NCBI RefSeq assembly: GCF_003018115.1
Contig: NZ_CP027457.1
DNA: 64,000 bases
From: Escherichia coli
GTDB taxonomy: Bacteria; Pseudomonadota; Gammaproteobacteria; Enterobacterales; Enterobacteriaceae
Reading direction: 5' to 3' (one strand)
Made by a program: the position numbers. Every line of letters starts with the position of its first letter. Position 1 is the stretch's first letter. This document shows positions 15,601 to 18,600 of this stretch, piece after piece.

Positions 15601-18600
15601 CCTTCATACTTATCATGGATATTGCCAGTCATTGTTGCTGCTCCTTTGCTTCTGATTTTCCCGTTAACAACCACATCAGGTCACAATTAAGAGCACTGGC
15701 CAGTGGTACTATCTGAGCAGCTGGAACTTCATGGATGACGCATTCCCAGTCGTTTATGGGGTCGCTGTAGGTATTAATCATGCGGGCAAGATCAGATTCG
15801 GTTAATCCCAGGTTTTTACGGGCGCTTTTGATGCGAGCGCCAATACTTTCTTCCCGTGGTTCTGGCACATTTACGCGAATAACAGACGCGCTATCTTTTT
15901 CATCCAGCAAAGAAAGAGGATCGCACCCAAGGACGTTTGCCAGGGGGATAAGCATGCTGATGGTCGGTTCGAACTCTCCGCTCTCCCATTGCAGGATGAT
16001 CTCTTCATCGAGATCAAGCAGTTTGGCAAGTTCGGTGGTCGTTAAGCCGCAGGCTTCACGTTGGGCACGGATTTTTCCAAAAAAGTGACCGTGCGAAACC
16101 ATAGCTTTTGCCTCACATAGTTTTTCTGCAAAAATTGATGCAGTTTCTTCTGTTTTTTGCAGGGAACGCATCAGGCATCTGATTGCATTATAAACCCTCT
16201 CACTTTCTGCTCCGTTTTCTGACATGTAGGAATAGATCATTCCAAGCAGCGAGCCGCCTTCTTGTATTTGTGCTGCAATTTCATCCATCACCTTAACTGC
16301 ATGCTTCATATGAGCCTCCTGTTGTTTTAATTTTACAATAGCCAAGGCGTTTGGTTGTGTCAATCGCTATAGCTATGTATTTTGGGCAGCAAAGAACAGA
16401 TTATGAGAGAAATGAGACGATACGTAGGGAGTTGAGATACAGGAAAGTAGAGCAGCTGCGCAATACAGCTGCCGGTGATATTGACTTATCCGACCCTGTT
16501 ATACTGGATTGACTGATGAATGAGAACTTTCCCCATTATGAATAGATGTTCTTCAGCTGATTCACTTATAAACCATTCCTTGTAGGCCGGATTGTCTGAT
16601 ATAACAGCAAGTTGCATCCCTTGCATTTGCAGGCGTTTGATATGGAAGGTGTGCCCAAAAATAAAAATATATATACCGTCAGTTTCAAAATTTCTGACGG
16701 ATACGTCGACAAACACCTGATCTCCTGCACACAGAGTAGGAGCCATGCTGTCGCCATTAACTGTTATCATCTTTATGATATTTGCTGGCCTGCTACAGAA
16801 CAGGCGTCTTGCGGCGTCATGTGAAAATTCTATAGCATGGACCGTTTCTGCAAAATCTGAAACAAGGAATGTTCCTGGTCCCGCGCTGGCAGCGATATCC
16901 AGGACTTCCACACGAAAAATATCCTTATCATTTTCTTGCGGGGGATATGATTCCTGCGGTGTCAGATTGCAGGATGTGCTTTCTTCTGAGTTCATAGGGC
17001 CAACGCCGTATGATAGCCACTCAGGGCGTACGTTCAGGATATTGGCGATTTCCACAACTTTTCTTGAACCCGTGGCACCATTAACCAGTTTATTGACGCT
17101 CGATTGAGCCATGCCAACTTCTCTGGCCAGTTTTCCCTGTGAGTATCCTCGGATAGTCATAGCTAACTGTAGCCTGTCTGAAAAGCTCATAAGTCCTCCT
17201 TTTTCTGTCCTTTTAGTGTATCGCCTTAGCGATATATACACAAACCGCTTTTTCGCGCATTGCAATCGCTTTATTCAATCGCTATAGTGAATATCATAAG
17301 GCTGGAGGTCGATATGAAAAATGAAGGTATAGCCAAGGCTGTAGATATTGCAGGAAGCCAGCTTGCTCTGGCAAAGCGTTGTGGTCGCGCGCAGTCAACA
17401 ATTTGCGACTGGCTGAATGGGAAGAAAAAAATTTCTCCTGAATTTGTTCCGTCTCTGGTTAAGGCGGTTGATGGGAAAGTCCAGGCGTATGAATTTCGTC
17501 CTGATCTACCGGAGCTTTTCCCACACCCAAGCTTAGCGCACACAGAGGATGAGAAGTGATGGTGGTGATATGAGCGAAAAAATAACTATTAAATACGATG
17601 GGGCAACCATTTCGATTGCCCCAATCACATTAGCGTTCGCTGAGAAGTTGTTGGTAAGCCTTAAAGGATGCGAACTGCATTCTACCTTCGGCATTGATTC
17701 CAATGCCTTCGCTTGTACACCAGGCGATGAACTCGGCTGTATCCGCTTCAACTTTAATAACTCGTTGCCCGCTTCTTTCGACACGCTTAATCAATTTTTC
17801 AGCGTCGTGTTTCCACTCGGTGTAACTGTCGGAGAGCACATCAGCATCAGTAAAAATATTTTTGAGCTCATGATACTGAATCGCATCGCGAAACCAGAAT
17901 AAACCAACGGCCTGAACTTTCATGTCGAACCTCCTTTGGTTCTTTTGTTTATAGGGATCAACAGGATAACTGAAGGAAGGTTCGGCACCAATAAGTACGA
18001 AAGTGCGGAATCTTAAAAGAATTTATCCGTAAGGAGATGGCAGTGAACACCGTAATTTTTAACGGCAAAGCATCCATGACCAGCGTTGAGATCGCAGAGC
18101 TGGTGGGAAGCCAGCATTCAGATGTTAAACGTAATATCGAACGCCTGGTTGCCAAAAGCATAATCCGGAAACCGCCAATGGCTGTTTCCGAGAAAATCAA
18201 TAACTTAGGGTTTAAAGTTCAACATGAGCATTACTTGTTTGAAGGCGAACAAGGCAAACGCGACAGCATCATTGTTGTCGCACAGCTTTGCCCTGAATTC
18301 ACCGACTGCCTGGTAGATCGCTGGCGTGAACTGGAAAAACAAATCCGCAAACCAATGAGCCAGATCGAAATGGTTGCTGCAATGGCGCTTGAAGCTGTTC
18401 GCCAACAAAGACGTCTTGAGCAGGTGGAAGAGAAAGTCACCTACGTTACTGAAACCGTCGAGCGAATCAAAAGAGGCACCATACGCGATGGTTATGCAGG
18501 CTACCGTCAGCTGGTAGCGAAAACGGGTATGTCAGATGCGAAATGCCGCAATCTGGTGAACGCATATCAGATCCCTACCGACCCCCATGAGTTCATGAGG

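Follow-up and report, generated by a model that had tools for sequence, protein, structure and literature searches.

What is the function of a short sequence that recurs on the two sides of a phage repressor gene, at one early promoter on each side? The 64,000-nucleotide stretch of DNA analysed here (the window) is 100% identical to Escherichia coli O178:H19 2012C-4431. It is a lambdoid, Stx1a-converting prophage of that serotype, inserted at yecE, with the gene order int/xis, two-HTH gene, cI, cro, Rha/BRO, helicase loader (ATP-binding protein), replicative helicase, Q, stxA1a/stxB1a, lysis and tail. Complete copies of this immunity type are rare, occurring in 19 of 5,426 complete E. coli genomes. 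The locus is very probably a lambda/434-style immunity region, and the repeats are predicted to be 14-bp CI/Cro operators at the early promoters. The immunity type is one whose operators had not been described; judged from sequence, it is expected to be otherwise an ordinary lambda-style on/off switch.

The cI gene (16486–17190, minus strand) encodes a 234-residue repressor (phrog_4) with a 434-like N-terminal helix-turn-helix (HTH) domain and an S24 autopeptidase domain. Both domains exceed the Pfam cut-offs (HTH_3, E = 2.2e-7, 31.3 bits, cut-off 23; Peptidase_S24, E = 1.1e-17, 64.2 bits, cut-off 23.3). Residues 2–62 match the 434 repressor (E = 4.7e-5), the nearest sequence match with a solved structure. 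The serine of GDSMA and the lysine of HIKRL align with the catalytic pair of lambda CI, the GNSM serine and the FKKL lysine. By direct reading, the linker carries an Ala-Gly in ASAGPG, a candidate cleavage site. The cro analogue (17314–17559, plus strand) is divergent from cI, 123 bp from the cI start, and encodes an 81-residue YdaS-family HTH protein (phrog_35; Pfam PF15943 over residues 6–65, E = 1.9e-15, 56.9 bits against a curated cut-off of 30). The recognition helix of CI, MAQSSVNKL, is invariant throughout the family, and that of Cro, AQST(I/V)CDWLNG, is invariant in 20 of 20 distinct family members. Neither cII nor N is among the prophage annotations, and Rfam has no RNA family in 16300–17320.

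The preliminary description of this DNA had reported a shared 12-mer, CAATCGCTATAG. The first copy is where it was placed (16361–16372), but the second is at 17276–17287, not 17277–17288, and the identity runs one base further left. The exact repeat is a 13-mer, TCAATCGCTATAG, at 16360–16372 and 17275–17287. An ATCGC-N4-GCGAT palindrome (ATCGCCTTAGCGAT), reported together with it, is exactly at 17220–17233 and extends to a perfect palindrome of 16 bp, TATCGCCTTAGCGATA, at 17219–17234. A repeated 13-mer somewhere in the window is not unusual, as 64 kb contain 63 maximal direct repeat pairs of at least 13 bases. At a spacing of 915 bp, 9 of 8,986 pairs of 70-bp segments have a 13-mer in common, about the number of overlapping sampling positions expected from TCAATCGCTATAG alone. 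The 123-bp cI–cro spacer contains 4 exact ATCGC/GCGAT half-sites, with 0.31 expected. The 13-mer consists of a 3-base flank, a left half-site, a 4-bp spacer and one further base. It is shared because two predicted operators, the distal one of OL and the one at PR, agree in left half-site, 4-bp spacer and 3-bp flank.

On the left side, the promoter reported as TTGACA-N17-TATTGT is recovered by our scan (16335–16363, minus strand; TTGACA at 16363–16358, TATTGT at 16340–16335), with 10 of 12 consensus positions, and is the top sigma-70-like match in 15000–18500. Transcription is predicted to start near 16328, and a Shine-Dalgarno sequence, GGAGG, lies ahead of the ATG at 16309. This is not the promoter of cI. 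It is located downstream of cI and would drive a gene for a 226-residue protein with two HTH domains (15629–16309, minus strand), indicating that it is the equivalent of PL/OL and that cI lies between OL and OR as in lambda. The two-HTH gene, an open reading frame and RefSeq CDS, is the first of the leftward (PL) operon. Its product has an N-terminal domain of about 75 residues followed by two HTH_3 domains (Pfam E = 1.3e-15) and belongs to phrog_4836, 'CII-like regulator'. A heteroimmune prophage has a homologue with 82% identity in the HTH part and an unrelated N-terminal part.

Two operators are predicted at PL. The distal operator (16363–16376; ATCGC-TATA-GCTAT) abuts the PL -35 element and contains the left copy of the 13-mer. 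The proximal operator (16338–16351; ATAGC-CAAG-GCGTT) lies over the PL -10 element and the promoter spacer. The proximal operator is one of two features absent from the preliminary description, the other being a third ATCGC at 17265. The distance between OL and OR is 0.9 kb, with no rexAB in between.

On the right side, the reported TTGCAA-N17-TATAGT promoter of cro is also recovered by the scan (17260–17288, plus strand; TTGCAA at 17260–17265, TATAGT at 17283–17288), with 9 of 12 consensus positions and a predicted start near 17295. As a class, promoter-like matches are not enriched in the region (7 against 6.5 expected); the PL and PR assignments are therefore based on position and conservation, not on the scan. 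Two strong operators are predicted here. The perfect palindrome ATCGC-CTTA-GCGAT (17220–17233) is OR3-like, lies 29 nt from the cI start codon and is presumed to overlap the cI maintenance promoter. The OR1-like operator (17278–17291; ATCGC-TATA-GTGAA) lies over the PR -10 element and contains the right copy of the 13-mer. The third ATCGC belongs to a weak site, or lone half-site, within the PR spacer (17265–17278; ATCGC-TTTA-TTCAA), which has a matrix score of 1.99 and rank 87.

Several other candidates on the right side were rejected. A full 16-bp 'OR2' at 17264–17279 is disfavoured by its matrix rank of 87, its variable right half and its overlap with the strong site (13 bp centre to centre). 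An outer palindrome, ATTCA-N10-TGAAT (17273–17292), is not the true operator, as its left arm varies among close variants. A leftward TTTTCA-16-TATGAT (17320–17293), the sole sigma-70-like match in that direction near the expected cI promoter, is not the promoter of cI, as its -10 element is lost in the variants at 94–96% identity. The scan yields no conserved sigma-70-like leftward promoter for cI in 17200–17290. By direct reading, a candidate -10 element for cI maintenance, TATATA (17233–17238, minus strand), is present in an invariant block at 17219–17251; it has no acceptable -35 element and is not in the scan output.

Close variants show a footprint of conservation on the predicted operators. 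We compared 11 variant loci, eight of them at 94–96% identity; in one more, an indel that lies within the two-HTH gene and not in the intergenic DNA upsets the alignment. The 299 bp of intergenic DNA contain 28 variable columns. The four strong sites have 40 half-site positions between them, on which about 3.7 variable columns are expected and none is seen, the comparison being one of about seven distinct sequences related by descent. Only two variable columns are inside any strong site (16343 and 16346), and both are N4 spacer positions of the proximal OL operator. Three of the four strong sites have variable columns 1–6 bases outside them, on both flanks. The distal OL operator has no variable column, and 16357, 16378 and 16379 vary; the strong PR site has none either, and 17272–17274 and 17293–17295 vary. 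The OR3-like palindrome is likewise free of variable columns. In the weak site, the left half is invariant and 17272–17274 are variable. Both PL hexamers are invariant in the 94–96% variants, with variable positions directly flanking them (16334 and 16357). The PR -10 element is invariant, and the -35 element varies at 17263.

The motif and its positions are also retained in distant relatives, which comprise 70 loci with CI 53–58% identical and 41 distinct OR regions. All have three sites in OR and two or three in OL, built on the motif of the window with its central 4 bp free to vary. At the position of the OR3-like palindrome, 41 of 41 regions have a perfect OR3. The distal and proximal OL operators are homologous to ATCGC-TAAA-ACGAT and ATAGC-CAAG-GCGAT of the relatives, whose two OL sites are 25 bp apart, equal to the spacing in the window. 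PL is homologous to their TTGACC-17-TATTAT, and the distance from PR to OR3 is 2 bp off from that of their TTGACA-17-CATAAT. When the window is scanned with a matrix from relatives only, the four strong sites rank 1 (PR site), 2 (OR3-like), 4 (OL distal) and 6 (OL proximal) among 63,981 positions. The sites of the matrix were gathered in the relatives by the ATCGC-N4-GCGAT pattern, so these ranks are partly circular, which is mitigated by an unseeded count headed by ATCGC-N4 among perfect palindromes (79 instances, 41 of 41 regions) and by ATCGC among 5-mers. In shuffled sequences about one match above 12 bits is expected per 64 kb. In accordance, matches at 26500–26513 (in stxA1a) and 60356–60369 (in a 423-residue open reading frame) are taken as chance.

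The right side of the window differs from the relatives. There are two strong OR sites, compared with the classical three and with three in the relatives. The stretch equivalent to OR2 is degenerate, and no other part of the cI–cro spacer varies as much. Therefore, lambda-style cooperative binding and activation of cI cannot be taken for granted. At 58 bp, or about 5.5 helical turns, the spacing of the two strong OR sites disfavours direct contact. A reading that we consider possible, though doubtful, accepts the operators and takes the strong site on the PR -10 element for a recent copy, produced by tandem duplication of 13 bp or converted from the OL site, so that only two strong right sites exist, without lambda-type pairwise cooperativity at OR. 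It is consistent with the 85% identity of CAATCGCTTTATT and CAATCGCTATAGT, which are in tandem, with the exact OL 13-mer in the strong site, and with the degenerate and variable OR2 stretch. In addition, the weak site corresponds in position to OR1 of the relatives, starting 45 bp from OR3 compared with 46 bp, and the strong site is 13 bp further right. However, the strong site plus CATAAG can be aligned instead with the relatives' OR1 plus its CATAAT -10 element (18 of 26 identities by direct reading), which would place the rearrangement elsewhere. No intermediate relatives with CI at 60–95% identity were found to decide. A recent copy refines the operator explanation and does not contradict it.

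More tentative still is a fuller version, in which OR was rebuilt in this lineage of Stx1 prophages. The middle site, which in the relatives lies over the PR -35 element and would activate cI, would have decayed, and a new strong site identical to that of OL would have arisen on the PR -10 element, by 13-bp duplication or OL copying. The two strong sites would then be on opposite faces of the helix, and stable lysogeny would depend on OL–OR looping over 0.9 kb or on non-cooperative binding. If true, a Shiga-toxin phage would be under the control of a naturally minimal form of the lambda switch.

The operator explanation assigns the motif to CI and Cro, and across the 70 loci the same CI/Cro helices go with the same ATCGC half-site. 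In HK639, the CI protein is 53% identical with the helix ISQPAIQKM, the Cro helix is VSQPAVHKW, and the operators are three perfect ATAAC-N4-GTTAT sites spaced 24 and 25 bp. HK639 is alike in its 5-N4-5 architecture and in the homologous CI C-terminal domain, but its helices and its half-site, ATAAC, are different, and we do not assign it to the same immunity type.

This co-variation bears on a reading that we regard as very unlikely, in which the 13-mer is the target of the two-HTH protein, which, in place of CI and Cro, would regulate its own promoter and PR alike. The protein has tandem HTH domains and a regulator annotation, and one copy of the 13-mer is in the promoter of its own gene. 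At PR, CAATCGCT is a direct repeat with two copies 13 bp apart, which could in principle be read by tandem DNA-binding domains. However, the same DNA-binding domains (82% identical) are present in two other immunity types without the ATCGC motif in PL/OR, L004, where exact ATCGC/GCGAT half-sites number 1 and 0, and Stx1_14040. These have other motifs, TTGAT-type in L004 and TTGATAC in Stx1_14040, each of which occurs in both its own PL and its own OR region. Furthermore, Klebsiella-type relatives such as Mulock have ATCGC operators but no two-HTH gene after PL. The motif tracks the CI and Cro recognition helices, not the two-HTH protein. As heteroimmune prophages with other motifs share its HTH domains, we reject this protein as the binding partner of the 13-mer.

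Still less credible is identity by historical accident, a recombination scar or chance repeat between AT-rich promoter regions without binding function: lambdoid immunity regions are mosaic, with a junction nearby inside the two-HTH gene, and direct repeats of this length are numerous in the window, but both copies of the 13-mer are invariant while their flanks vary, coincide with top matrix matches from distant relatives and occupy the operator positions of relatives, and segment pairs at 915-bp spacing share a 13-mer only about as often as this one repeat predicts.

Taken with the operator explanation, two proposals of the preliminary description need adjustment. The repeats had been called CI/Cro operator half-sites. 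Operators at the early promoters are what the invariance in close variants, the motif and positions kept in distant relatives and the co-variation with recognition helices argue for strongly, but the units are full 14-bp operators (5-N4-5), not half-sites. The operators had also been said to define the immunity specificity of this phage. The motif does co-vary with the recognition helices, but the half-site is not unique: numerous prophages, and Klebsiella phages such as Mulock, have the same helices and ATCGC operators. Therefore, the specificity is probably common to those phages.

The locus has components of a lambdoid switch, namely a repressor with an HTH domain and an S24 Ser/Lys domain, a divergent small HTH cro, several OR operators, an OL cluster and operators that co-vary with the helices. 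In the switch that we propose, cI is located between two operator–promoter units, OL/PL on the left and OR/PR on the right. PL would start the early leftward operon, consisting of the two-HTH gene, several small genes, xis and int. PR would transcribe cro and then, on the same strand, the Rha/BRO/antirepressor genes, the replication genes, Q and stx1. In the lysogen, CI dimers would bind through their 434-like HTH domains at OL and at the PR site, blocking RNA polymerase at PL and PR, and the palindrome adjoining cI would serve for negative autoregulation of cI. Upon DNA damage, RecA-stimulated self-cleavage via the S24 domain would remove CI. Binding of the YdaS-type Cro to the same operators would then turn cI off and, later, dampen PR. 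We infer which protein occupies which site, the order of binding and any looping between OL and OR.

The arrangement resembles that of lambda, in which cI also lies between leftward and rightward early promoters, each overlapped by several similar pseudo-palindromic operators, the repressor likewise consists of an HTH domain and an S24 self-cleaving domain, and a small HTH Cro is divergent from cI. The centre-to-centre distance of adjacent OL sites is about 25 bp here and about 24 bp in lambda. The operators are 14 bp (5-N4-5) here and 17 bp in lambda, with unrelated sequences. The OL–OR distance in lambda is 2.4 kb. In contrast to lambda, cI here comes with a leader and a Shine-Dalgarno sequence, Cro belongs to the YdaS family rather than having the lambda Cro fold, and the first PL gene encodes the two-HTH protein instead of N. 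Phage 434 is alike in having a 14-bp operator with the outer bases specified and the centre free, and in a related CI N-terminal domain. The 434 operators are ACAA-N6-TTGT, read by a helix with Gln28, Gln29 and Gln33. The locus is not of the imm434 type, as its half-site sequence is different (ATCGC-N4-GCGAT) and its recognition helix is MAQSSVNKL compared with TTQQSIEQL.

A precedent for the Cro protein is CP-933P, in which a YdaS protein acts as Cro in gel-shift and footprinting experiments, with matching OL/OR operators (PMC8630535). It is alike in being a lambdoid switch with a YdaS-family Cro and in having PL operators like those at PR (PMC8630535, PMC9986795). It differs in its 18-bp repeat operators, with the consensus GTTTAGTAA, in its CI-like protein PaaR2, and in the paaR2 gene being leaderless and in an operon with a toxin–antitoxin pair (PMC8630535, PMC9986795). 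In CP-933P ydaS is followed by YdaT, whereas in the window cro is followed by an antisense 97-residue gene and the Rha genes.

Other close systems are Klebsiella phage Mulock, ST13-OXA48phi12.5 and some 70 prophages of IMG/VR. Mulock and the IMG/VR loci have a CI at 53–58% identity with identical recognition helices, a YdaS-type Cro and ATCGC-N4-GCGAT operators at matching promoter positions. The Mulock-type relatives differ in having a full three-site OR with a perfect OR2 over the PR -35 element and other genes after PL, in Mulock small membrane proteins and a kil-like gene. Our search of the literature on this operator and immunity type found general precedents only, and no experimental characterisation of the Mulock, IMG/VR or HK639 operators. 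A survey of Stx phage repressors divides CI proteins into eight clades; it reports no operator analysis and notes that clade differences may reflect distinct target sequences (PMC8951638).

Since the prophage carries stx1a, the repressor–operator set would govern its induction and thereby affect how the phage spreads and how toxin is released in a STEC isolate of human origin. With the operators defined, mutants at known positions, cross-immunity with Klebsiella phages and a one-step swap of specificity between ATCGC and ATAAC become testable. The general understanding of such switches is unchanged by these operators.

A hairpin is located just 3' of the cI stop codon (16451–16473, minus strand). 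When folded it has a stem of 9 bp, its T tract is weak and the z-score is only -1.46. It may be a weak terminator that keeps cI transcripts apart from PL, though it is not convincing as one. The relatives have a canonical, strong terminator at this position.

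The window matches the chromosome of E. coli O178:H19 strain 2012C-4431 with 100% identity and contains a lambdoid prophage integrated at yecE, bordered by a DUF72 gene and yecD. The prophage encodes, in order, integrase and excisionase, the leftward early operon, cI and cro, Rha/BRO/antirepressor genes, a helicase loader (annotated as ATP-binding protein) and the replicative helicase, Q, stxA1a (26166-27113) and stxB1a (27123-27392), and lysis, head, and tail proteins. The prophage is therefore Stx1a-converting. An STnc100 sRNA match (27471-27684) lies just downstream of stxB1a. 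The chromosomal flank left of the prophage carries the host sRNA genes MicL (3543-3850, plus strand, 370.7 bits) and ES036/CssrF (7786-7828, minus strand, 45.5 bits), as detected with Rfam.

The region around cI (16486-17190, minus strand; HTH_3 and Peptidase_S24 domains) and cro (17314-17559, plus strand; YdaS family) forms an immunity region in the style of lambda and 434, in which Cro is of the YdaS type. The promoter scan recovered both promoters proposed in the preliminary description. The leftward promoter, TTGACA-17-TATTGT (minus strand, 16363..16335), matches 10/12 consensus positions and is the top match in 15000-18500; the rightward promoter, TTGCAA-17-TATAGT (plus strand, 17260-17288), matches 9/12. 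The leftward promoter does not serve cI; its gene (15629-16309, minus strand) lies downstream of cI and encodes a 226-residue protein with two HTH_3 domains (the two-HTH protein). Thus, the layout is OL/PL, cI, OR/PR, cro, the same order as in lambda. The complete module is present in 19 of 5,426 complete E. coli genomes.

The 12-mer originally described as a shared operator is part of a longer exact repeat, the 13-mer TCAATCGCTATAG, with copies 915 bp apart at 16360-16372 and 17275-17287; the first coordinate given for the 12-mer was correct and the second was off by one base. The palindrome ATCGCCTTAGCGAT at 17220-17233 is exact, as described. Repeated 13-mers are common in the window (63 maximal pairs per 64 kb); it is rare for 70-bp segments at a spacing of 915 bp to have a 13-mer in common (9 of 8,986 sampled pairs, about the number expected from the TCAATCGCTATAG repeat itself). 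The 123-bp cI-cro spacer contains four exact ATCGC/GCGAT half-sites, versus 0.31 expected.

Four strong sites of this form, 16338-16351 and 16363-16376 in OL and 17220-17233 and 17278-17291 in OR, are conserved in close variants. The comparison covered 11 variant loci, taken from E. coli genomes and from IMG/VR. Eight of these are 94-96% identical across the module; in a further one, an indel that lies within the two-HTH gene and not in the intergenic DNA shifted the alignment. Among 28 variable columns in 299 bp of intergenic DNA, none falls on a half-site base of the four sites, and the only two within a site, 16343 and 16346, are the two outermost positions of the 4-bp spacer in 16338-16351. 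Variable columns flank three of the sites on both sides, 1-6 bases out (16334/16353, 16357/16378, and 17274/17293), and flank 17220-17233 on the left only (17218), its right side joining a conserved block that reaches 17251. No variation was seen in either PL hexamer or in the PR -10 element.

The same motif occupies corresponding positions in distant relatives (70 loci from IMG/VR, and Klebsiella phages including Mulock), whose CI is 53-58% identical to that of the window. Their OR contains three ATCGC-N4-GCGAT-form sites in 41/41 distinct regions: a perfect site adjoining cI, a perfect site over the TTGACA -35 element of PR, and, within the PR spacer, a near-perfect one, spaced 27 and 19 bp start-to-start, with the central 4 bp free to vary. 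At their PL, ATAGC-CAAG-GCGAT lies on the -10 element and ATCGC-TAAA-ACGAT beside the -35 element, 25 bp apart, exactly the window's own spacing; often there is also a third site upstream. In an unseeded count over the relatives' regions, ATCGC-N4 is the commonest perfect palindrome (79 instances, 41/41 regions) and ATCGC the commonest 5-mer. With a matrix built from the relatives' sites alone, the four sites rank 1, 2, 4, and 6 among 63,981 positions. Two other high matches, 26500-26513 (third-best) inside stxA1a and one inside a 423-residue ORF, are in line with shuffles, which give roughly one chance match per 64 kb; the match inside stxA1a is probably due to chance.

The recognition helices co-vary with the sites. 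The CI helix MAQSSVNKL is invariant through the whole family, in which the rest of CI falls to 53% identity, and the Cro helix AQST(I/V)CDWLNG is likewise invariant. HK639 CI has similar overall identity, but its helix is ISQPAIQKM, and its YdaS-type Cro carries VSQPAVHKW. The HK639 OR (2199-2261 of its locus, in window-like orientation) contains three perfect 14-bp palindromes of the form ATAAC-N4-GTTAT, at spacings of 24 and 25 bp; its GenBank record marks nothing but a 'putative pR' in the cI-cro spacer. HK639 thus shares the site architecture, and its specificity bases have changed along with the two helices. In two further immunity types, L004 and Stx1_14040, window ~16063-17515 is replaced and the flanking DNA kept, and each type has its own motif common to its PL and OR regions (TTGAT-type and TTGATAC, respectively). 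The two-HTH protein is unlikely to read the immunity-specific sites, since both of its HTH domains are 82% identical between the window and these two types. In its N-terminal domain, CI most resembles the 434 repressor (E=4.7e-5). The operators of 434 repressor are likewise 14 bp. A YdaS-family protein of prophage CP-933P acts as Cro by footprinting, with matching OL and OR operators (PMC8630535).

The invariance in variants, the motif positions in relatives, and the co-variation of the helices support, at the sequence level and with several corrections, the initial reading of these sites as CI/Cro operators. The region has the sequence features of its class, with two exceptions: a search for the cI maintenance promoter identified none, and OR falls short of the classical number of three strong sites. 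Neither the ATCGC-N4-GCGAT operator nor a CI of this type was found in the literature searched. The switch controls a Shiga-toxin phage, and its right operator has apparently been rebuilt.

In the proposed mechanism, CI dimers bound at 17278-17291 and at both OL sites would prevent transcription from PL and PR. Transcription of cI itself would be kept in check through the palindrome at 17220-17233, which lies 29 nt from the cI start codon. The S24 domain, whose Ser and Lys align with the catalytic pair of lambda CI, would mediate RecA-dependent self-cleavage, after which Cro would take over the same sites. The centres of the OL sites (16344.5 and 16369.5) and OR sites (17226.5 and 17284.5) are 882 and 915 bp apart, or 84.0 and 87.1 turns at 10.5 bp per turn, and a distance of 58 bp (5.5 turns) separates the two strong sites of OR; these distances could bear on OL-OR looping or be coincidence.

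The right operator is unusual. The stretch matching the relatives' middle OR site (~17244-17259) is degenerate, and nowhere else in the spacer is variation as high. At 17265-17278, which corresponds in position to their promoter-proximal site, the left half alone is kept (matrix rank 87), and the strong site 17278-17291 lies 13 bp further right, on the PR -10 element, carrying the exact OL 13-mer. The tandem arrangement of CAATCGCTTTATT and CAATCGCTATAGT suggests that 13 bp were duplicated or copied from OL. An alternative alignment is possible, and no intermediates for the rearrangement were found.

The N-terminal domain (~75 residues) of the two-HTH protein is swapped together with cI, cro, and operators in 3/3 immunity types examined (L004 gene, 2139-2831; that of a further compared locus, L088, 2739-3389), suggesting either a mosaic junction inside the gene or a domain whose function is linked to that of the cognate repressor. 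The 'Clade VIII CI' of Stx phages has two HTH domains and lacks S24 (PMC8951638), and may be the two-HTH protein rather than a true CI.

On the plus strand, an isrK-like sRNA (19678-19754, 61.6 bits) and a C4 antisense RNA of P1/P7 immI type (19779-19866, 82.4 bits), both from Rfam, lie inside ORF 19624-20475, within the 5' third of a gene annotated in RefSeq as 'Rha family phage regulatory protein'. The true Rha/antirepressor start is probably an internal ATG near 19924, and the arrangement resembles an antirepressor module under C4 RNA control, which would give the PR operon a second immunity layer. An inserted 97-residue gene in antisense orientation (17630-17923, minus strand; phrog_4753, no Pfam match) separates cro from the first Rha gene and has an 11-bp-stem hairpin at its 3' end (17623..17599). 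It is a moron-like accessory gene; in a 95% variant that lacks it, cro is directly followed by Rha.
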